Position numbers and translations under genes: made by a program | DNA from: an uncultured archaeon | Lineage (GTDB): Archaea > Asgardarchaeota > Lokiarchaeia > Sigyniarchaeales > SOKP01 | Direction: 5' to 3' | Assembly: GCA_964583985.1 (NCBI GenBank) | Contig: CAZOYD010000042.1 | Span: 9,203-31,272, forward strand | DNA: 22,070 bases | The notes under the pieces: generated by a model | Told to the model about the DNA's origin: nothing | The model's database searches: none | The model's input: the letters and a program-made list of their open reading frames with translations, nothing else | In this document: piece by piece, positions 1 through 22,070 of the stretch | Numbering within the stretch: the stretch's first letter is position 1 | Layout of the letters: each line of letters begins with the position of its first letter

Positions 1-1
1 T

Positions 2-1249
2 TTTACCCAATTCCTATTTCTTTGGACAGGTCAATTGTTTTCGATATTAGGGTCTGCTATAGTCGGCTTTGCTATTACGTGGTGGATAACAATCACAACC
101 GAAAGCCCAACATTGCTTTCTATAAGCACTTTCATGTACGTTTTACCAATGGCACTTCTTACTCCTTTTGCAGGAGTAATAGCAGATAGGCATAATAGAA
201 AAATCATTATTGCAATAGCGGATTCAGCGCAAGCATTAATCACTTTCATAGTGATCGTGCTTTTTTGGCTCAATTTAGCTTATCCAATAGTTGTTGTTCT
301 AATAATGGGTTTTCGAGGTATTTGCCAAGCATTTCATGTTCCTACTTTCAGTGCCGTATTACCATCGATGGTTCCAAAAGATAAATTGAGTAGAATGAAT
401 GGAGTTAATTACCTATGTATAAGTGTAATAAATATCATTGGACCTGTTTTTGGTGCGACATTATATTCAATTTGGAGCATTCAATTAATCTTATGGATTG
501 ATGTTATTACTTATGGTATCGCAATGGTTCCACTTCTATTAGTTAAAATACCCTTGATGATTAAACCTAAAGAAGAAAAAGAGAAAGATTCTTTCCTTCA
601 TGAATTCAGACTTGGATTAAAAACAATAAATCTCATACCGGGTTTGGTTGCTCTCTTGTTATGGTCAATGGTGCTTAATTTTTTACTCATGCCCACGAAT
701 GTTCTATTACCTTATTACATTGCATTCGAACATGGTGGGAATGAATTTGATTTGGCTATATTAACCGTCTTCTTTAGTATCGGGATGATAGGTGGTAGTC
801 TATTAACATCCATAAAGAAAAATTGGAATCGAAAACTCTTTTCATATTTCGGCTCACTCATCATTTTAATGGGGGCTATTTCGATATTAGCATTTGTTCC
901 AAAAGGATTTTACTTGCCCATGTGGATTGGAATGATGATTGTCGGGTTCATGTTACCGATAGGAAATACGATCTACATGACAGTGATTCAACTCACGGTG
1001 CCAAAAGAAAAAATGGGAAGAGTTGCCTCAATTGACCAATCATTATCGTCTATAATGTCGCCAATTGGAGCAATTTCTGCCGGACCTTTAGCTGATCTTA
1101 TCGGGGTTAGACCATTATTTTTATTAATATCGATAATAGGCTCTTTTGGTTCAATTGTGGTATGGAAGGGAACAAGACTAAGAAAAGCAAATTATGATGA
1201 TCAAGAGGAACTCGATAGGATAAGTGAAAGCATGAACCACGTATCATAA
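2..1249 (+). CDS. MFS transporter, DHA3/MefA-like efflux family (5'-truncated by window edge)
   Basis: The frame is open from base 2 (FTQFLFLWTGQLFSILGS, typical TM1 of DHA3 MFS), so the track start at 35 is internal. Motif A-like GVIADRHNRK is present, with about 12 hydrophobic segments. Confidence 0.92.
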   Translation, partial: FTQFLFLWTGQLFSILGSAIVGFAITWWITITTESPTLLSISTFMYVLPMALLTPFAGVIADRHNRKIIIAIADSAQALITFIVIVLFWLNLAYPIVVVLIMGFRGICQAFHVPTFSAVLPSMVPKDKLSRMNGVNYLCISVINIIGPVFGATLYSIWSIQLILWIDVITYGIAMVPLLLVKIPLMIKPKEEKEKDSFLHEFRLGLKTINLIPGLVALLLWSMVLNFLLMPTNVLLPYYIAFEHGGNEFDLAILTVFFSIGMIGGSLLTSIKKNWNRKLFSYFGSLIILMGAISILAFVPKGFYLPMWIGMMIVGFMLPIGNTIYMTVIQLTVPKEKMGRVASIDQSLSSIMSPIGAISAGPLADLIGVRPLFLLISIIGSFGSIVVWKGTRLRKANYDDQEELDRISESMNHVS

Positions 1250-13321: not shown

Positions 13322-13777
13322 TTAATCGGGTGTAAGCGAATCTAAATCAGAAAGATCTAAACCACTATCTAAGGTATCTGGAATATCTGCCAAGAACTCA
13401 TCCAAGATTTCCTTTAATTCGTCTCCTGAACGTTTTAATATGAGTCGAATCAAACCGATGTTAATCTCAGGGTCAGAAATCAGAGTTAATACACCTTTTG
13501 GGCCGCAACTGGAAGCGAATATTTTTCCTCCTCCGAACTCACTCGTAACTATTTCTAAATCACCAAGTTCTAAATTCTTTCCTTGCTCCTCCGATGCACA
13601 AAAAACTGCTGAAGCAATAGCCCCAATACCATCAACATCTGCGGGGAAATACGAGAATTTCGAGACGCTTGCGATAGTCAAACCAGTTCTATCGACTAAA
13701 ATTACTTTTTTAATTCCACTTTCAGATTTGATAATTTTTGATAAAATGTTATCGAATGATTTGGTATCAAGTGACAT
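13322..13777 (-). CDS. Roadblock/LC7 (MglB/LAMTOR-like) protein with acidic C-terminal tail
   Basis: GIKKVILVDRTGLTIAS, GIGAIASAVF, IVTSEFGGGKIF, INIGLIRL form the roadblock pattern. Confidence 0.92.
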   Translation of the reverse strand: MSLDTKSFDNILSKIIKSESGIKKVILVDRTGLTIASVSKFSYFPADVDGIGAIASAVFCASEEQGKNLELGDLEIVTSEFGGGKIFASSCGPKGVLTLISDPEINIGLIRLILKRSGDELKEILDEFLADIPDTLDSGLDLSDLDSLTPD

Positions 13778-13962: not shown

Positions 13963-15177
13963 TTAAATTAGATTATTATCTTTCACGATTTGTAAATAAT
14001 GGTCCCTTTCACGTCTTAAAACTTTTATTTCTTTCTTTAAGTCAAAGATATATCCATTGATTTCTTCTTCATGTTTAACTTTGGAAGAAAGCTGTTCTTT
14101 TAAATTCTTGATTTCTACTTTAAGGGTGGTCATTGAATCAATATGCAGATTGCTTGATTGTTTGGACTTAGTAATTTCTTCCTTGAGATTTTCATTTTCT
14201 TTTTCCAAGGCTTTAATTTCGGAATGTAATCCGAGATTAATGCTCTTCAAATCCTCCATTTCCTGCAATATTTTTTCTGCTTCTTTTTCAATATTTTTGA
14301 TTTCAAGTGCTTCATTCGTTAATTGACTTATTGCTAAGTTATTTTCAGTTAATTTCTTGTCTTTTTCATTTAACTTTTCTGTTAATTTATTCACTTCAAT
14401 TAATAATTTTGAATTATTCTCGTTTAGTTCGGCCATTTGTTGGCTCCAACTTTCTAATTTAATGTACTGTTCACTGATTTCGTTCTTTAAGGAATCGATT
14501 TCTTCTTCTTTCTGAGATTTTTCAGAAGCTAAATCTGCATATTTTCTAGTTAGTTCCCTAATTTTTCCTTTCTTCTCTTCTAATAAACTTTCAAGTTCAG
14601 AATTTCTTGATGCTGAATCTTGCATTGTTTTATCATTTGTAGGATTATCTTTTTCGTCGTTTTTTATTTGAAAACTTTCTCGTTTCTTATCAAGTAAATC
14701 ATTACTTTTTTTAATTTCTCTTTCTACCAAACTCGTCTCACCTTCAATAATTTCCTCCCAATAGGGTGTTAATTCATTACTTTTCATCATTTCATAATAT
14801 TTGCCCAGGATATCATCGAAATTAAGTGCTTCTCGTTTTGGGAGTAATTCATAAGAGATACGGCGCATCATTCCTTCAATTTCTGGGGGAAGAACCTCAT
14901 CTTCTGAAAGAAAAACCACAATAGCAAAATTTGGTGTTCCAACATAGTGCCTGAAAGAAAATCCCGAATAAAAGCTCGTAACGTTAATATCACCTTCTAA
15001 AATGACTTCGAGGTAATTTGGTTCCATTTTCTTTTTAAGATGGTAGTCAGAAAGTTCTTGAAGTGATCGTTGAGAAATATTGAGGAATTCAGCCACATTA
15101 CTTGGAAATTGCTTATCAATATAAGCTTTCGATTCTTCATTAAAACCGATAATTATAATGCCTTTCAAAGTGATCAA
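13963..15177 (-). CDS. N-terminal longin/uDENN-like domain plus long C-terminal coiled coil
   Basis: The N-terminus GIIIIGFNEESKAYIDKQFP...VTSFYSG...AIVVFL resembles the uDENN/longin opening (F-D-x3-G-P-x5-P type). About 210 C-terminal residues are heptad-rich in E/K/L. Confidence 0.65.
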   Translation of the reverse strand: MITLKGIIIIGFNEESKAYIDKQFPSNVAEFLNISQRSLQELSDYHLKKKMEPNYLEVILEGDINVTSFYSGFSFRHYVGTPNFAIVVFLSEDEVLPPEIEGMMRRISYELLPKREALNFDDILGKYYEMMKSNELTPYWEEIIEGETSLVEREIKKSNDLLDKKRESFQIKNDEKDNPTNDKTMQDSASRNSELESLLEEKKGKIRELTRKYADLASEKSQKEEEIDSLKNEISEQYIKLESWSQQMAELNENNSKLLIEVNKLTEKLNEKDKKLTENNLAISQLTNEALEIKNIEKEAEKILQEMEDLKSINLGLHSEIKALEKENENLKEEITKSKQSSNLHIDSMTTLKVEIKNLKEQLSSKVKHEEEINGYIFDLKKEIKVLRRERDHYLQIVKDNNLI

Positions 15178-15278
15178 CTGATTTTTTTTAATCAGATGGA
15201 GAACTCTTAGAATTAAGTTTATTAATCGCTATATTATTATAAACTTTATATATATAATAATAAAAAACAAAGTTCTTC

Positions 15279-15647
15279 TTAAGGATTTAGATAACTACTG
15301 ATGAGTTCTCTAAATTCTTGAACTTTAATAGGTTTTGAAACGTACTGGTTAAAACCAGCTTCCATAATACGTTCCTTATCTCCTTTCATTGCAAAGGAAG
15401 TCACTGCAATGATTGGAATGGTTTTAAATTTATCCAGTTTCCTTAATTCGCTGCAAATTTCAATTCCATTCATTTCTGGTAGTTGGATGTCCAGAATCAC
15501 AATATCCGGATCTCCTGATTTTATTAATTCAAATCCTAAATCTCCTCGAGTTTCTTCAAAAAGCTCAATATCGGGAATGATTTTTAAAATTGCACGAAAT
15601 AATTTCATGTTCTTTTCATTATCTTCAATTACAAAAACTCTCTTCAT
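15279..15647 (-). CDS. Single-domain response regulator (CheY/DivK-like receiver)
   Basis: VIEDN, phosphoacceptor PDIVILDIQLPEMNG, AVTSFAMKGD, YVSKP; no output domain. Start is ATG 15647 or GTG 15656. Confidence 0.95.
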   Translation of the reverse strand: MKRVFVIEDNEKNMKLFRAILKIIPDIELFEETRGDLGFELIKSGDPDIVILDIQLPEMNGIEICSELRKLDKFKTIPIIAVTSFAMKGDKERIMEAGFNQYVSKPIKVQEFRELISSYLNP

Positions 15648-15815
15648 CTTTTTCACTTTAAATTGTTAGAAAATGCTTTTTCTATTCTAAATAATATCAA
15701 GCTATTAAAATAACCATGAGTATTTAGATATGTTTATATATATCATTTTGCATTTATTATTTAAATTTAATTCTTCACGAAAAGCACAAAATCTTAAGTA
15801 TTAAGTGTTCTGATC

Positions 15816-17135
15816 TTGGTCGTTGGTATCGTACTCTTTAGTTGGGATAAGAAGATAGGTTCAGTTGTCGATTTCAAATATCCTCAAGGCTTTGAAATCC
15901 AAGATGATTTGATTAATAAAATATACATGACGTTTGCTTATAGCGAAGATTTTGACAAGCAAGAATTGATTGAAACTAGTTATAGTAACCTAACGATCTT
16001 GTCTTACTGCGATAAAACAAGAGTACCTACAGTTGGATACGAAATTGTGAGTCTATTTTTAGAGGAAAAAGAAGCAATCAATTCATTTAGTTTCAAAAAA
16101 AAATTAATCACTTTTGGACAAGATATTTTTACAATTGATAAATCAGAGCGTAATACATATTTTGAAAATAATATTGAGGGGTTCTTCAAATCTACTTCCG
16201 CTCAAAAAATCCTATTACTTGGTAGAGCAGGTACAGGAAAAACAACCATTAAAAAAATAATTTTTGAGGGATTTGATCCCAAAGAATTACTGGTTAATCC
16301 TTTAGATCCCACTCGTGGATTAAGTCCGTCGGTTTATTCTTGGCTAGATTTAAAAATCGGACTGTTTGATTCTTCTGGTCAGGAATTAGAAACTTTATTA
16401 AATAATAAAGATGAATATGACCTGGCATTTTATAATACCGATGCGATAATATATGTTTTTGATTATCCTACTTGGATTAGAAATCCTACCGAAATCGTTT
16501 CTGAAATTCAAAAAATTCAAAATATAATTAAAGAAGAATCCTATTCCGCTAGAATTATAATTTTCATTCATAAAATTGATTTAATCAATAATGAAAATCG
16601 TAAAGATATACTCGGAGAGATTACCAACATCTTAAAAGAAAAATTACCTTTTTCAATTTTTTATACTAGTATTCATCCGGAATTTATTTTTAGTACCTAC
16701 AATGCTTTTTATGAAATTTTAGCAAACTATTCAAAAGAGACTTTTCAACTAAAAAAAATATTGGATGATTTCATCAATGATTCTCCGAAATCAATGTTTT
16801 TCATAACAAACCAAAATAATAGCATAGTATCACAATCTACATCCAACGATTTTAATTTCGGTAATATTAACCATGCTCATAAATTAATTGCTCAAATTAC
16901 TCAAACATTTGAGGACATGTCAAACAATAGTAAGATTGAACATCTCATAATTTCTGGACAAAACGATTTAAACCTTATTTTGAATAATCTTAATTTAAAT
17001 CAATTTGAAATTAAGAATTTGATTTGTATTTCTGAAACTCTTAGCGCAAATAAATTAATTTGGATGATAGGACAAATAAGATCAAAAATAAAGAATTTAT
17101 TTTATTTTAACATAAAGGAAAAGAGTTCAAATTGA
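15816..17135 (+). CDS. Multidomain Rag/Gtr-like small GTPase: uDENN/longin-like N-domain + GTPase + roadblock/longin-like C-domain
   Basis: G1 KILLLGRAGTGKTT, G2 PTRG, G3 DSSGQ, G4 HKID, G5 TSI (HKxD and TSI are Rag-type). N-terminus GIVLFSWDKKIGSVVDFKYP; C-terminus LKKILDDF..MFFITNQNNSIVS. Confidence 0.85.
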   Translation: MVVGIVLFSWDKKIGSVVDFKYPQGFEIQDDLINKIYMTFAYSEDFDKQELIETSYSNLTILSYCDKTRVPTVGYEIVSLFLEEKEAINSFSFKKKLITFGQDIFTIDKSERNTYFENNIEGFFKSTSAQKILLLGRAGTGKTTIKKIIFEGFDPKELLVNPLDPTRGLSPSVYSWLDLKIGLFDSSGQELETLLNNKDEYDLAFYNTDAIIYVFDYPTWIRNPTEIVSEIQKIQNIIKEESYSARIIIFIHKIDLINNENRKDILGEITNILKEKLPFSIFYTSIHPEFIFSTYNAFYEILANYSKETFQLKKILDDFINDSPKSMFFITNQNNSIVSQSTSNDFNFGNINHAHKLIAQITQTFEDMSNNSKIEHLIISGQNDLNLILNNLNLNQFEIKNLICISETLSANKLIWMIGQIRSKIKNLFYFNIKEKSSN

Positions 17136-18646
17136 GTAAAAAGATAATTTTTGTGGGACCTTCAGGTGCAGGTAAAACAACTTTAAAGAAGCTCTTTTTT
17201 GAAGGTGAAAATTCAACTAAATTGTTAGAGTATGCGTTAGAGCCAACATATGGAGAAGAATCTCTCATAATAAAATTACCAGGACTAGAAGAAGATATTG
17301 GAATCTTTGATTTGGCAGGACAAGAAAATGAAAGATGGTTAAGCTCTGAAGCGAATTCGATTTTTTATGAAACAAGAATCATCATTGTAGTTATCGACGT
17401 TTCAGCAAATTTGGAAAGTACTATCGATTTTATTTCGCGAATAATTGAGATCCGTAATCAGTTAACTCCTGAAACAAAAATTTATGTTTTACTTCATAAA
17501 ATCGATTTGATTGGCGAGAAACGAATTAGAGACATCAGTGAAGGGATTAAGCATAAGTTCTCTTCTGAAAAATTGCTAAAATTTTTATTCACCAGCTTAA
17601 AAAAGAAATATCTCACGCAAACATTGTCTTACTTCATTGAAATTATGAAGGCTTGTCTTGTTGATGAGACATCTGAAGAAGCTTTAATGTTTAATGTTAT
17701 AGATGAATCTATGAAATTAATACATTTAATTGATGAAAGTATCATTCTACCAAGAGAAAATTTGCATGAAAAATTAAATCGTCCTGAAAATTTAGTTAAT
17801 TTTTTAATCAAGAGTCTTGTTTTGAAAGGTCATCTCAAGATAGAGACTAACAACAACCAAGAATTAATAAGTTTAACAGAAAAAGGAAGAGAATATTTTA
17901 AGGATGTTATAAAAACTTTCTCCAAAGCCAGCATAAATATAATTCAATTAAAAATGGAAGAAATTATTCCCCCTTTTATTGGTGCTTTTATAGCTGACAA
18001 GGATGGACGTACTTTATTAAAAATTGAAATATTTGATGAGGCCCTCGAAAAGTTTCTTATAACCGAGGTTTCAAATGATCCTAACTTTATTCCAGTAGAT
18101 TTAGATTTGATCCCAATGTTTATTAGTGCACTAGAGAAATTTTCGCTTGAACTGAATATTCAAGATTTGTCTGGTTTTGGACTAAAAGGAAGTAATTTAG
18201 GAATGCACATATTAACATATGATAATTTTACTGTTACCTTTTTTATGAATCCTAATGTAAATATAGCCCCTGTTCTCAATAAAGTTGATAATTTTTTTAA
18301 AAATTTATTTGAAGAATTTAAAGATGATTTCGAATATAGTTTAAGAACTGGTCAAATCGACGGATTATTCCCTTTAATGAAATTAGGGCAGAATTGGCTT
18401 AAAGAGTTGAATGAAACATATAATGACATGATTATTAAATTAGAAATTTATGATTTAGAAAATGCTCAACAATTATATAATGATCTTGATAATTTATTCG
18501 ATAGAGTCAATCTTAACTATTCTCTTACACTTGAAAGAATCAAAAAATTGAAAGTTAATCTAATGAAGGCCATTTTGGAAAATGATTTTGAGGAGTTAAA
18601 AAAAATAGCACAAATCACGCAAGATTTAAGTGCCAAGTTCTTATAG
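17132..18646 (+). CDS. Multidomain Rag/Gtr-like small GTPase: GTPase + winged HTH + longin/roadblock-like domain + helical tail
   Basis: G1 GPSGAGKTT, G2 PTYG, G3 DLAGQ, G4 HKID, G5 TSL. wHTH LIKSLVLKGHL..ISLTEKGREY. Longin-like FIADKDGRTLL..DLIPMFISALEKFSLEL. The TTG start overlaps the upstream TGA (TTGA). Confidence 0.85.
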   Translation: MSKKIIFVGPSGAGKTTLKKLFFEGENSTKLLEYALEPTYGEESLIIKLPGLEEDIGIFDLAGQENERWLSSEANSIFYETRIIIVVIDVSANLESTIDFISRIIEIRNQLTPETKIYVLLHKIDLIGEKRIRDISEGIKHKFSSEKLLKFLFTSLKKKYLTQTLSYFIEIMKACLVDETSEEALMFNVIDESMKLIHLIDESIILPRENLHEKLNRPENLVNFLIKSLVLKGHLKIETNNNQELISLTEKGREYFKDVIKTFSKASINIIQLKMEEIIPPFIGAFIADKDGRTLLKIEIFDEALEKFLITEVSNDPNFIPVDLDLIPMFISALEKFSLELNIQDLSGFGLKGSNLGMHILTYDNFTVTFFMNPNVNIAPVLNKVDNFFKNLFEEFKDDFEYSLRTGQIDGLFPLMKLGQNWLKELNETYNDMIIKLEIYDLENAQQLYNDLDNLFDRVNLNYSLTLERIKKLKVNLMKAILENDFEELKKIAQITQDLSAKFL

Positions 18647-18663
18647 TTCCCAAAATATTCATG

Positions 18664-20796
18664 CTACATTTTTTCTAATTTTTTAGGAATATTAAATGTA
18701 AAGGTTGAGCCAACACCTAATAAACTAGTAAAATTAATTTCTCCACCATGTAATTCGATTAGTCTTTTTGTTAGAGACAAGCCTAAACCTGTACCTTGTA
18801 CAGATCGAACATATGCGGAGTCAACTCTTTTAAATTCTTTAAATATAAGTGGAAAATCTTTTTTATCAATCCCGATCCCAGTGTCTACTATCTTAAAAAT
18901 CCAATTATAATAATTTTGTGTAATCTTCAATCTGACTGTTCCATCAATAGTGAATTTAATTGCATTACTCAGAAGATTCAGTAAAATTTCTTTAAATCTA
19001 ATCGGATCTGCATATATCTCAAGTTCTTCTTCTATCCCCTTTATTTTTAAATTAATTTTTTTTTGGTCATATAATGGTCGTAAACTTGATTTAATTTGTT
19101 CCAGTAATGAATTCAATGAAAATTTCTGAATATTCAATGTCAATTGTCCGGACTCAATTTTGGTAATGTTTAGGATATGTTTAATCATTTCAAATTGATG
19201 TTCAGCTGAGCTTTTAATATCCACTATAAATTCCTTTTGTTCATCGCTTAAGTCTCCATAAACACCTTCTAAAAGTAAATCAGTAAATCCTATTATCGCG
19301 TTTAAAGGAGTGCGTAATTCATGTGACATCGTAGCCATAAATTCGGTTTTAAATTGAGAAGATTTAACAATCTGGTCCAAGTATAATTTTTGCTGTGCAA
19401 GAGCATCGTGTAGTTCTTTAGTTCTTATTTCAACTTTTTCTTCGATTTCTTCTTTAAACTTCGCTTCGAAAAGCTCATTTCTTTTTTTTTCTGTAATATC
19501 TTGAAAGATTAACTGGATTATACTAATGCCATATTGTTTAATTAAAGATGCTTGGAGTTTTACCCAAATTTGTTTATTTCCTTGATGATTGATTTGAACT
19601 TCAATTGGTTTTGGAAATTTATTATTAAAGGATGCTTGAAATATTCTTTTAAAATAAGTTCTTATCTCTAAAGGAAAAAGATTATTAAGTTCATCTATAG
19701 TCTTTCCTTTCAAAGATTCAATACCATATCCTAAGATTTTACTTGTTATTGAATTACAATCCAGTATTTCTCCCTTTAAATTGATTAATATTATAGCATT
19801 AGGGGAATTATCGAATAAATTCTTATATCTCTCCTCAACTAACTTTCTCTCAGTTATATCTCTTGATACAATGAGCCATTTTTGCTTATTATCCTTATCA
19901 ATAAAAGATTGACCCCGGCATTCAAACCATAACCATGCTCCATTTTTGTGCTGGAATCTAAGTTCTAAAAAATTATAATTTTCATTAGATCTTGTTTTAT
20001 ATACTTGAGTAAATTGTTCAACTTCATCTTTATGTATGAAGTCTAAACAGGAGTAACCTATAAATTCCTTACTTTGATACCCTAGTAGCTTGATTAGAGT
20101 ATGCTCATTAATATATTCAAATTTATAATTTGAGTTTATTATAATAACCAAATCATTGATATTTTCCAAGATTAATCTATAGCTTTCTTCTGACTCTTTT
20201 ATTAATACTTCAAATTTTTCTCGCTCAAGTGCATTTCCTATAATTTGAGATGTGATGCGGAGCAGTGAGAAATCTTTCTCTCTCCATTCTCTTGTAAAAT
20301 TTACTGTGTCAAAGCCTAAAAAACCAAATAAACTAGATTTTACGTAAATTGGAAAAATAAGCACTGATTTTATATTCTGTAGTTCAAAGAATTCTTTTGT
20401 TGCACCTGCATTTTCGGGAAGATTATCAATATTTGAGGTATGGAAGATTTTTCCATTCATAAGTTGATCGATTAACCATGGAAATCTACTTAATTCTAAA
20501 TTTTGAAGCACATGTACTCGTGGACTTATATTTTCTTCATTCCACTCGTAAGTATTGCTGACATATTTTGCATCTTTACTAATTGTGAATATATAACTAC
20601 GACTCACACCACTAAAAATTGCGATATCTCTTAATGTTGCATTGATCACTTCATCAATGTTAAAATTTCCGAGAAATCTTGATGAAATCGTAGATATTAC
20701 CGTTTCAAGATTCAACCAATGTTCCAACAATTCGAGTGTTCCCTTCGTAATTTCCTCATGATCGCGTGAAAGATCTTCCTTATTATCCAACATCAT
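18664..20796 (-). CDS. Cytoplasmic sensor histidine kinase, GAF-PAS-PAS-HisKA-HATPase
   Basis: GAF (NTYEW..IKSVLIFPI..FGFLGFD), two PAS/PAC units ending in RDITE/QDITE, H-box MSHELRTPL, N-box NLLSNAIKF, DTGIG, GTGLGL; no TM segment. Confidence 0.95.
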   Translation of the reverse strand: MMLDNKEDLSRDHEEITKGTLELLEHWLNLETVISTISSRFLGNFNIDEVINATLRDIAIFSGVSRSYIFTISKDAKYVSNTYEWNEENISPRVHVLQNLELSRFPWLIDQLMNGKIFHTSNIDNLPENAGATKEFFELQNIKSVLIFPIYVKSSLFGFLGFDTVNFTREWREKDFSLLRITSQIIGNALEREKFEVLIKESEESYRLILENINDLVIIINSNYKFEYINEHTLIKLLGYQSKEFIGYSCLDFIHKDEVEQFTQVYKTRSNENYNFLELRFQHKNGAWLWFECRGQSFIDKDNKQKWLIVSRDITERKLVEERYKNLFDNSPNAIILINLKGEILDCNSITSKILGYGIESLKGKTIDELNNLFPLEIRTYFKRIFQASFNNKFPKPIEVQINHQGNKQIWVKLQASLIKQYGISIIQLIFQDITEKKRNELFEAKFKEEIEEKVEIRTKELHDALAQQKLYLDQIVKSSQFKTEFMATMSHELRTPLNAIIGFTDLLLEGVYGDLSDEQKEFIVDIKSSAEHQFEMIKHILNITKIESGQLTLNIQKFSLNSLLEQIKSSLRPLYDQKKINLKIKGIEEELEIYADPIRFKEILLNLLSNAIKFTIDGTVRLKITQNYYNWIFKIVDTGIGIDKKDFPLIFKEFKRVDSAYVRSVQGTGLGLSLTKRLIELHGGEINFTSLLGVGSTFTFNIPKKLEKM
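19264..19326. repeat. 63-bp near-identical repeat shared by the two kinase H-boxes (second copy 21447-21509)
   Basis: 61 of 63 nt are identical by manual alignment. Confidence 0.85.
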
Positions 20797-20810: not shown

Positions 20811-22070
20811 TTATAAAATTTTTAAAAAATGTTCTACTTCAAACGATTCTTTACGTATAAGTTCATTAGGTATTCTAATTTGGAATGTCGTACCTTCTCC
20901 CTGTTTACTATTAAATGAGATACTCCCACCATGAAGTTCCACAATTCTCTTAGTTAACGCTAAACCTAAACCAGCTCCAGGTGTCGCATCTACAAGTGGT
21001 GTTTTAACTCTTTTGAAATCCTTGAAAATGAAACCAAAATTCTCTTCTGCTATCCCAATACCTGAATCCTTGATAAATAATTCCCATCCTTCTTTATCGG
21101 AAGAAAATTCTATGATAATATATCCTTTTTCAGTGAATTTAATTGCATTAGTCAGAATATTGTAAATTATATCTTTGAGTTTTAAGGGATCTCCTTTTAC
21201 TATTTGTTTCTTTTTAATTCCTCTCATATCTACTACTAATTTTTTTTCATCAATCGCTGATCTCAAAGTTGATAAAATATTATTTATAAAATCATATAGG
21301 CGTATTTCTTCGTAGTTCAATGAAATTTGACCAGATTCTATTTTAGAAATATCTAATATCTGTGAGATCATGTTAAATTGATGTTCAGCTGAACTTTTAA
21401 TATCCTTGATAAATTCTAATTGCTCATTGCTTAAACTTCCATATATACCTTCTAAAAGTAAATCAGTAAATCCTATAATGGCGTTTAAAGGAGTGCGTAA
21501 TTCATGTGATATAGTCGCCAAAAATTCTGTTTTAAAATGCGAACTTTTGATAATTTGATCGAGATATACTTTCTGCTTTTCAAGGGCTTCAGTTAGTTGA
21601 TTCGTCCGTATTTCCACTTCCTCTTCGAGCTTCTCGCTAAAACTTCTCCTTAAAGCCTCACTTTTCTTTCTCTCTGATACGTCTCTGACAAATCCTTTAA
21701 ATCCTATAACTTTATTATTATCATTCAACTTTAAATAAACAGAAGATTCTAAATATATAATTTCTCCATTGGTTTTTCTCTGTGGATATTCTATTATTTT
21801 AAATTTCTTCTTAGTTCTCAACAATTCACTAGATTCATTAAATATATATTGTTTTGTATCTTCATCACATAATTCACTATAATTTTTCTTTAAAAGTTCT
21901 TCTCTTGTAAAACCGGTAATTTCTGCTAATGCTCCGTTAAAAAAAGTAAAGTTTCCGTCTAAATCAACCTCGAAATATCCTTCTTTAATAGTCTCAAGAA
22001 TGCTCCTATATTTTTCTTCAGATTTTTTTAACTGTTCTTGAATTAACTTTATATCCGTTATATCTCTTCC
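20811..22070 (-). CDS. PAS-domain sensor histidine kinase (5' end beyond window)
   Basis: The frame is open to the window edge (GRDITDIKLIQEQLKKSEEKYRSILETIKEGYFEVDLDGNF...), so the track start at 21824 is internal. ISHELRTPL, NILTNAIKF, DSGIG and GAGLGL are present. Confidence 0.95.
   Translation of the reverse strand, partial: GRDITDIKLIQEQLKKSEEKYRSILETIKEGYFEVDLDGNFTFFNGALAEITGFTREELLKKNYSELCDEDTKQYIFNESSELLRTKKKFKIIEYPQRKTNGEIIYLESSVYLKLNDNNKVIGFKGFVRDVSERKKSEALRRSFSEKLEEEVEIRTNQLTEALEKQKVYLDQIIKSSHFKTEFLATISHELRTPLNAIIGFTDLLLEGIYGSLSNEQLEFIKDIKSSAEHQFNMISQILDISKIESGQISLNYEEIRLYDFINNILSTLRSAIDEKKLVVDMRGIKKKQIVKGDPLKLKDIIYNILTNAIKFTEKGYIIIEFSSDKEGWELFIKDSGIGIAEENFGFIFKDFKRVKTPLVDATPGAGLGLALTKRIVELHGGSISFNSKQGEGTTFQIRIPNELIRKESFEVEHFLKIL

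Follow-up and report, generated by a model that had tools for sequence, protein, structure and literature searches.

A conserved pair of differently built Rag-family GTPases beside two-component genes in a Lokiarchaeial archaeon

Rag GTPases are obligate heterodimers central to nutrient signalling in eukaryotes, and two adjacent genes of an uncultured archaeon (class Lokiarchaeia, order Sigyniarchaeales) raise the question of whether two unlike GTPases of this family also work together in archaea. The genes, here called ORF1 and ORF2 (open reading frames 1 and 2), lie within 22,070 nucleotides (nt) of contig CAZOYD010000042.1 (assembly GCA_964583985.1), a stretch referred to throughout as the window; coordinates count from its first letter. 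An earlier note on this DNA had described them as two translationally coupled Rag-type GTPases, possibly a RagA/RagC-like heterodimer. The analysis presented here suggests that they are probably anciently duplicated, differently built members of the Rag/Gtr family, both from one Lokiarchaeial subclade, which are encoded in one putative operon and act as a joint GTP-switch module inside a two-component gene cluster. The pair and its junction, with protein lengths in amino acids (aa), are as follows:

15816..17135, + strand: ORF1, 439 aa, TTG start, TGA stop at 17133-17135; longin domain, Rag-type GTPase domain, roadblock domain (L-G-R)
17132..18646, + strand: ORF2, 504 aa, TTG start; Rag-type GTPase domain, winged helix, roadblock/longin-like domain, coiled coil
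17132..17135, + strand: TTGA overlap, in which the ORF2 start TTG (17132-17134) meets the ORF1 stop TGA (17133-17135)

Both proteins have hundreds of homologues, all of them in metagenome-assembled genomes of Promethearchaeota/Lokiarchaeia, and the ORF1 family alone forms at least 120 clusters in metagenome-assembled genomes of Promethearchaeota. A scan of species-representative genomes yielded 39 loci, of which 35 could be assessed downstream of the ORF1 orthologue. An ORF2 orthologue follows directly and on the same strand in 32 of the 35, with a stop-to-start distance of -8 to +37 nt in 30 of the paired loci and an overlap in five. The homologues are thus found as a tight co-directional pair and not mostly apart; separate occurrence was the outcome that the earlier note had named as fatal to its proposal. 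A sample of 100 genomes was also drawn from the class and queried with the non-GTPase parts of ORF1 and ORF2, in order to escape crowding by GTPase paralogues; a whole-genome query with full-length ORF2 had reached only 15 of the roughly 40 candidates in each genome, which made its absences unreliable, and it was for this reason repeated with the non-GTPase parts. The ORF1 longin domain was recovered in 40 of the sampled genomes, full-length ORF2 tails in about 37, and the pair, adjacent and co-directional, in 27. Given that the genome of the window contains 38 matches to the Pfam family Gtr1_RagA, it might be thought that two of its many GTPase paralogues have become neighbours by chance. Incidental adjacency is, however, scarcely credible where the same two orthogroups recur in the same order across nearly all assessable species loci (32/35) and 27 sampled genomes, and these synteny counts already contradict it.

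The locus is also a hotspot for paralogues (G052:C10:661160-674538; L036:2350-6844; L053, which is G043:C87; handles beginning with G, C and L stand for genomes, contigs and loci of the survey). The order ORF2-like, ORF1, ORF2 is seen in some genomes; in others there are tandem ORF2 copies, or the pair is accompanied by additional genes of ORF1-like or small GTPase type. At two loci, L041 (1314-2600) and L048 (2445-3950), the ORF2 orthologue is split by a single frameshift and ORF1 is intact, which may reflect assembly error or early decay of ORF2. Among the longer relatives that were searched (770-2195 aa) no fused ORF1-ORF2 protein was found at E<=1e-10, which is weak evidence.

That both proteins are Rag-type GTPases, as had been proposed, is borne out by Pfam, by sequence matches to chains in the PDB and by predicted fold. 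Gtr1_RagA is the best-scoring Pfam family for each, above Arf, Ras and Roc (86 bits for ORF1 and 59 bits for ORF2, against a curated cut-off of 22). Compared by sequence with PDB chains, each matches RagA/Gtr1 best and RagC/Gtr2 at a lower score (52 and 37 bits for ORF1, 44 and 26 bits for ORF2). The complete set of G1-G5 motifs reported earlier, including Rag-type HKxD and TS[IL], is present in both: GRAGTGKT (aa 136-143), PTRG (165-168), DSSGQ (185-189), HKID (252-255) and TSI (284-286) in ORF1, and GPSGAGKT (9-16), PTYG (38-41), DLAGQ (60-64), HKID (122-125) and TSL (154-156) in ORF2. Neither protein has thus lost a motif for nucleotide binding or catalysis, and both keep the switch II glutamine; that the two may take up opposite nucleotide states, as the earlier note supposed, is conjectural. 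The H, K, D, G and Q of these motifs are invariant in alignments of 46 (ORF1) and 48 (ORF2) homologues, and the key residues overall are invariant or nearly so.

The domains of ORF1, delimited with an AlphaFold 2 (AF2) model that was built on the family alignment (predicted local distance difference test, pLDDT, 83), are:

15816..16181, + strand: longin-type domain, aa 1-122; AF2 topology two strands, helix, three strands, two helices
16203..16724, + strand: GTPase (G) domain, aa 130-303; G1 16221-16244, G2 16308-16319, G3 16368-16382, G4 16569-16580, G5 16665-16673
16734..17126, + strand: C-terminal roadblock domain, aa 307-437; AF2 topology helix, two strands, helix, three strands, helix

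Residues 126-432 of the model superpose on full-length Gtr1, RagA and RagC (VIA-align, Z 19-20, 255-283 residues aligned), and the match takes in the C-terminal roadblock domain of those proteins. ORF1 thus has the order of domains that marks the Rag/Gtr family, a G domain and then a C-terminal roadblock domain. A comparable fit is obtained between residues 129-425 and the Lokiarchaeal protein LokiRagO (PDB 8yl2; Z 19.4, root-mean-square deviation (rmsd) 4.0 Å, 258 residues). In its predicted structure, then, ORF1 has the whole body of a Rag, G domain and roadblock, with an extra longin domain at the N-terminus. This N-terminal part (aa 1-122) has no Pfam match, and a protein-atlas look-up with residues 1-125 gave NPR2-longin as the nearest named cluster at 0.79, a range that shuffled sequences also reach.

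ORF2 is built differently. Its AF2 model (pLDDT 75) gives four parts:

17132..17659, + strand: GTPase domain, aa 1-176; G1 17156-17179, G2 17243-17254, G3 17309-17323, G4 17495-17506, G5 17591-17599
17675..17875, + strand: helical and winged-helix insert, aa 182-248; AF2 helices 182-203 and 219-231, hairpin 235-248
17879..18349, + strand: roadblock/longin-like alpha/beta domain, aa 250-406; AF2 topology helix, two strands, helix, two to three strands, helices
18371..18640, + strand: C-terminal coiled coil, aa 414-503; long AF2 helices 414-435, 442-483 and 486-503

The G domain superposes on Gtr1/RagA at Z 21-22 (VIA-align, rmsd 2.1 Å over 174 residues) and on Arf, Arl and Rab proteins at about Z 17. 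An insert of roughly 70 residues, in which the winged helix proper occupies about aa 211-248 after two helices of the model, parts the G domain from the alpha/beta domain. For the latter (residues 250-406) there was no Pfam match and no domain-level fold match was obtained; a protein-atlas look-up with residues 250-410 returned Roadblock/LAMTOR2 as the nearest named cluster at 0.80, again within reach of shuffled sequences. In VIA-align (model range 1..267), helix 250-267 coincides with the helix that opens the roadblock domain of RagA, and Foldseek gives long alignments of ORF2 to whole Rags. The predicted topology and the Foldseek alignments fit a roadblock/longin-like domain at residues 250-406. 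Of the downstream roadblock/longin-like domains that the earlier note had placed in both proteins, that of ORF1 therefore stands firmly (Z 19-20) and that of ORF2 on topology and Foldseek. Stand-alone proteins of 180-270 aa match ORF2 only over about residues 276-434, the alpha/beta domain, at 25-46 per cent identity, and such free-standing proteins are encoded in most genomes of the class, including those without ORF2 (e.g. G047:C3:17514-17996 and G013:C84:9748-10218).

The order of parts in ORF2, a G domain followed by a helical/winged-helix segment and an alpha/beta dimeriser, resembles that of Roc-COR, so that ORF2 might be of Roco type (a Roc GTPase with a COR dimerisation module) and not a Rag at all. 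Foldseek indeed matches it to archaeal and bacterial RocCOR proteins and to LRRK2 over long alignments at E about 1e-9, and its Pfam Roc score of 29 bits lies above the cut-off of 27. The Gtr1_RagA score is nonetheless twice as high, Rag chains lead by five orders of magnitude in Foldseek and by Z 21-22 to 17-18 in VIA-align, and ORF2 has no Pfam COR match. The HKxD of its G4 and the TS[IL] of its G5 are as in Rags, and in the tree its G domain groups as sister with the one from ORF1, which has a clear Rag body. Taken together, these comparisons make a Roco identity very improbable.

If both are Rags, it might be expected that one corresponds to RagA and the other to RagC, as the earlier note suggested. 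The two are indeed non-identical GTPases, as it also held, and are paralogues whose G domains are 33 per cent identical (hhalign probability 99.9%). Relationships were examined with a tree of the 39 Ras-superfamily G domains of the 3.8-Mb genome that contains the window, together with orthologues from other species, and the relation to eukaryotic proteins was judged by PDB bit scores and a published tree. The ORF1 and ORF2 groups are sisters within one clade (Shimodaira-Hasegawa-like approximate likelihood-ratio test, SH-aLRT, 96); Rag-like paralogues of plain GTPase-roadblock build and Ras/Rab-like paralogues lie outside that clade. In the published analysis, the two eukaryotic Rag lineages go back to a duplication that preceded the last eukaryotic common ancestor and is nested among Asgard relatives (Vargova et al., 10.1101/2024.02.28.582541). 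Because ORF1 and ORF2 form sister groups and both score nearer to RagA/Gtr1, and given that placement, the division into a RagA-like and a RagC-like member does not hold. By these sequence comparisons the pair represents a separate duplication within Lokiarchaeia, neither orthologous nor ancestral to RagA and RagC, and any heterodimer of ORF1 and ORF2 would have arisen by a duplication separate from theirs.

Further members of the subclade are found on another contig of the same genome. A second coupled pair is encoded at G000:C41:9269-11234 (- strand), where the gene for a Rag-like GTPase of 310 aa, a member of the ORF1 subclade, shares 23 nt with the gene for a 351-aa protein. The latter has a longin-like head and matches Gtr1_RagA weakly, and a 184-aa Ras-like GTPase follows. 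At G000:C41:31895-32981 (+ strand) a longin-like gene of 222 aa ends 17 nt before a G domain that belongs to the ORF2 subclade and continues up to the contig end, as if the longin-GTPase design had been divided between two genes.

The junction between the two genes was the basis of a further proposal, namely that coupling through the overlap enforces 1:1 stoichiometry. The 4-nt TTGA stop/start overlap at 17132-17135 is confirmed by the letters of the sequence. The TTG start of ORF2 is credible, since orthologues begin with M-S-K-K at the same aligned position (with ATG in most) and there is no in-frame ATG upstream of the P-loop, which starts at residue 9. The overlap is common only to the window and its nearest relative, L013; the other orthologous junctions span the -8 to +37 nt already given, and several of those loci have a clear GGAGG-type site within the 3' end of ORF1. 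The stoichiometry argument thus rests on a detail that is confined to one lineage and its closest relative, and its premise is not conserved.

The pair sits among genes for two-component signalling, together with further longin and roadblock proteins:

15279..15656, - strand: stand-alone CheY-like receiver (Pfam Response_reg only), divergent from ORF1
18664..20796, - strand: GAF-PAS-PAS histidine kinase (Pfam), convergent with ORF2
20811..22070, - strand: second PAS histidine kinase (Pfam and synteny), running off the window
13963..15177, - strand: protein with a longin-like head and a long coiled coil; no Pfam domain above cut-off
13322..13777, - strand: free Roadblock/LC7 protein (Pfam Robl_LC7 and MAPKK1_Int, LAMTOR3-type)

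A receiver orthologue (68-87 per cent identity) lies less than 4 kb from ORF1 in 27 loci, and an orthologue of the GAF-PAS-PAS kinase flanks the pair in most. Where loci have been rearranged (L018, L022, L023, L024 and L053/G043), the kinases and the receiver are still beside the pair. The longin-headed coiled-coil protein is encoded upstream of the receiver in many loci (32-78 per cent identity), and it and the Roadblock gene are present in a subset of loci only. In loci where identity falls to only 50-60 per cent for ORF1 and ORF2, the free Roadblock/LC7 protein still reaches 90-98 per cent, and judged by these identities it is under much stronger constraint than the genes around it. The locus therefore combines GTPase, roadblock and kinase/receiver genes in a conserved neighbourhood, as bacterial modules built around MglA do; its GTPases are of the Rag family and not MglA, so the likeness is one of design and not of membership.

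Since the receiver lacks an output domain and no other DNA-binding protein is encoded in the cluster, it could be supposed that ORF2 is itself the transcriptional output, a GTP-gated protein that binds DNA through its winged helix under the control of the orphan receiver and ORF1. Beyond the winged-helix fold between G domain and alpha/beta domain, a weak match to Pfam HTH_34 at aa 235-264 (E 0.07) points this way, as do fragments of ORF2 homologues that are labelled 'PadR family' or 'predicted transcriptional regulator' in the source databases. The HTH_34 match is, however, below the Pfam cut-off, and winged helices also serve as protein-protein modules in the regulators of GTPases; they are common in this role in ESCRT-II, in COR-A of Roco proteins and in GATOR1 subunits. 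No DNA target or palindrome came to light, although no search was aimed at one. ORF2 as the transcriptional output of the cluster is improbable.

How might the two proteins act together? Rag/Gtr proteins dimerise through their roadblock domains (PDB 3r7w, 6s6a), and by analogy ORF1 and ORF2 would come together through their roadblock/longin platforms; in the simplest case their C-terminal alpha/beta domains would pair to give a heterodimer. We advance this heterodimer tentatively and put its chances at a little short of even. The close spacing of the genes would favour co-translation in similar amounts, and a phosphorelay from kinase to orphan receiver may set or read the nucleotide state of the GTPases, an arrangement that would resemble MglA/MglB/RomR of Myxococcus or the conservon of actinobacteria, with its kinase, roadblock protein and GTPase. 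Prediction of the full-length ORF1-ORF2 complex with their alignments scored 0.00 in both runs and, in the absence of controls, speaks neither for nor against binding. One may go further and imagine an archaeal Rag-type heterodimer, from a duplication independent of RagA/RagC, that docks on the roadblock and longin-coiled-coil proteins and whose state is set or read by a histidine-aspartate phosphorelay through the orphan receiver. This fuller picture is speculative and on present evidence unlikely; if true, it would amount to a Rag-Ragulator-like switch in a prokaryote, in which a two-component system takes the place that TOR signalling has in eukaryotes.

Several observations weigh against a joint module, and some of them favour a different arrangement. 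The non-GTPase domains of ORF1 and ORF2 have no detectable sequence relationship (hhalign probability <=5%, and 5% between the ORF1 longin domain and the ORF2 alpha/beta domain), and a symmetric roadblock-roadblock pairing is for that reason not evident from sequence; since profile-profile comparison matches the G domains only, the assignments of the other domains rest on predicted structure. The pair is carried by only about 37-40 per cent of the sampled genomes of the class, and among 200 genomes of the phylum the non-GTPase part of ORF2 was found in none outside families f1 and f2. One genus has the order receiver, ORF1, kinase without ORF2 (L029, L035 and L047; genomes G003, G005 and G036, 98-100% complete). 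ORF1 therefore does not strictly need ORF2, and this tells against a heterodimer of the obligate kind. Genome G043 has two paralogues of ORF2 on the opposite strand. In a closed 4.36-Mb genome of family f2 (L052, G053:C1:3716000-3735000) relatives of ORF1 and ORF2 with about 30-34 per cent identity are divergently oriented and 4 kb apart, and between them are a Ras-like GTPase, a KaiC/GvpD-like ATPase and a coenzyme A (CoA)-ligase-like gene, with no kinase or receiver. Even in this distant family, the two stay within 4 kb of each other. The titles of PDB entries for Lokiarchaeal Rag-like proteins, finally, describe a homotetramer (8yl2) and a monomer (8zla).

The genus that keeps ORF1 beside the same receiver and kinase, and the homotetrameric 8yl2, are what might be expected if no heterodimer forms. 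ORF1 would then be a homo-oligomer through its roadblock domain and ORF2 one through its coiled coil and alpha/beta domain, and the two would act in series; the longin/roadblock platform of one could, for example, act on the other's G domain as a platform of GTPase-activating protein (GAP) or guanine-nucleotide exchange factor (GEF) type, like MglB for MglA or longin complexes for Rags and Rabs. Tandem duplicates of ORF2-type genes (G052, G043, L036) and the coiled coil of about 90 residues that ends ORF2 are consistent with this arrangement, and longin-GTPase architectures have been modelled as homodimers by Tran et al. Close pairing on one strand, as seen in 32 of 35 loci, is on the other hand expected of subunits that are produced jointly, although the same pattern would arise for a regulator with its target, and with full catalytic motifs in both proteins neither looks like a mere regulator. 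Separate homo-oligomers are the main alternative, if a doubtful one, and a joint switch module of two Rag-family proteins is still regarded as probable.

The eukaryotic Rag/Gtr heterodimers (RagA/B-RagC/D; Gtr1-Gtr2; PDB 3r7w, 6s6a, 8fw5) are among the nearest known counterparts. ORF1 and ORF2 share with them the Pfam family, the HKxD and TSI motifs, the best sequence and fold matches, the succession of G domain and roadblock-type domain (for ORF2 as a predicted topology), and presumably the making of two non-identical paralogues together; a free roadblock protein with a LAMTOR-type Pfam match is likewise encoded nearby. In contrast to the eukaryotic proteins, they are not one-to-one orthologues, both being nearer RagA/Gtr1, ORF1 has its added longin domain and ORF2 its winged-helix insert and coiled coil, and their neighbours are a histidine kinase and a receiver instead of TOR, Ragulator or GATOR. 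Dimerisation of the archaeal pair is, moreover, putative.

Also close are the Rag-like GTPases of MK-D1, whose architectures, including 'LGR' and 'GXLX', have been catalogued (Tran et al. 2024, PMC10933270). ORF1 has the LGR and ORF2 the GXLX architecture, and the MK-D1 sequences in Supplementary Fig. 6 of that study share distinctive motifs with them, the MK-D1 relative of ORF2 being labelled 'GXLX'. The same authors described one operonic Rag-like pair in MK-D1, the only such pair there, for which AF2 predicted a heterodimer through the roadblock (RB) domains. From its consecutive accessions (WP_147663117/663118) this appears to be two plain GTPase-roadblock proteins and thus a different pair. 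Unlike the window, the closed genome of the MK-D1-type family has its LGR and GXLX relatives 4 kb apart; it is in the window's own family that the LGR and GXLX genes form a tight operon with two-component genes around it. Structures of two further Lokiarchaeal proteins, LokiRagO (8yl2, homotetramer) and LokiRagM (8zla/9m28, monomer), have the same fold as ORF1. They differ in being only 13-19 per cent identical (Foldseek alignments), with no match in the ORF1 sequence search at E<=0.01, in belonging to another paralogue class (plain GTPase-roadblock), and in oligomeric states other than the proposed heterodimer; no paper on either was found in the literature search.

Links between GTPase, roadblock protein and kinase or receiver have been described in bacteria (Wuichet and Sogaard-Andersen 2014, PMC4316618). 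The MglA-MglB-RomR system of Myxococcus (PMC4316618) and the conservon (CvnA kinase, CvnB roadblock, CvnC, CvnD GTPase; PMC13621833) bring together, as the window does, a Ras-superfamily GTPase, a partner of roadblock fold and a kinase or receiver. Their GTPases are single-domain members of the MglA family, one per module, whereas the window cluster has two GTPases, both multidomain and of the Rag family, in which longin and roadblock domains are fused to the GTPase part. In Asgard archaea, longin-Rag fusions have been reported, as have NPRL2-like longin domains fused to two-component domains, and growth regulation has been proposed to be still centred on two-component systems (Liu et al., 10.1101/2020.10.19.343400). 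Longin/Rag parts of eukaryotic type are associated with two-component signalling both there and here. The link drawn by Liu et al. is a general one made through domain fusion; that of ORF1 and ORF2 is made through a conserved neighbourhood and concerns one specific pair. No paper describing the LGR+GXLX operon or its kinase/receiver context was found in the literature search.

The protein architectures, the idea of an operonic heterodimer and the link of longin/Rag proteins to two-component systems are thus already published in general form, and as binding between ORF1 and ORF2 is here only inferred, the value of the locus is moderate. It offers a matched, conserved Rag-family pair from the closest archaeal relatives of eukaryotes and so bears on the origin of the heterodimer design, and it names candidate partners in the receiver, the kinases, the roadblock protein and the longin-headed coiled-coil protein. 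With recombinant proteins, it makes testable whether Rag-type heterodimerisation arose more than once, and likewise the regulation of archaeal Rag-type GTPases by longin and roadblock domains and their input from a phosphorelay.

There are some traces of the locus in environmental data. One metatranscriptome run contains two 151-nt contigs identical to 15787-15937 and 16051-16201, the 5' part of ORF1, for which carry-over of DNA is possible; the ORF1/ORF2 junction is not covered by these contigs. The first begins 29 nt upstream of the ORF1 start and about 25 nt downstream of a TATA-like, AT-rich TTTAAATTTAA (15761-15771), which hints, from a single contig of read length, at a transcript start near 15787. 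DNA nearly identical to 15200-18700 occurs mainly in salt-marsh metagenome runs from 2019; five runs, one of which may represent the sample behind the assembly, contain half or more of the sampled words.

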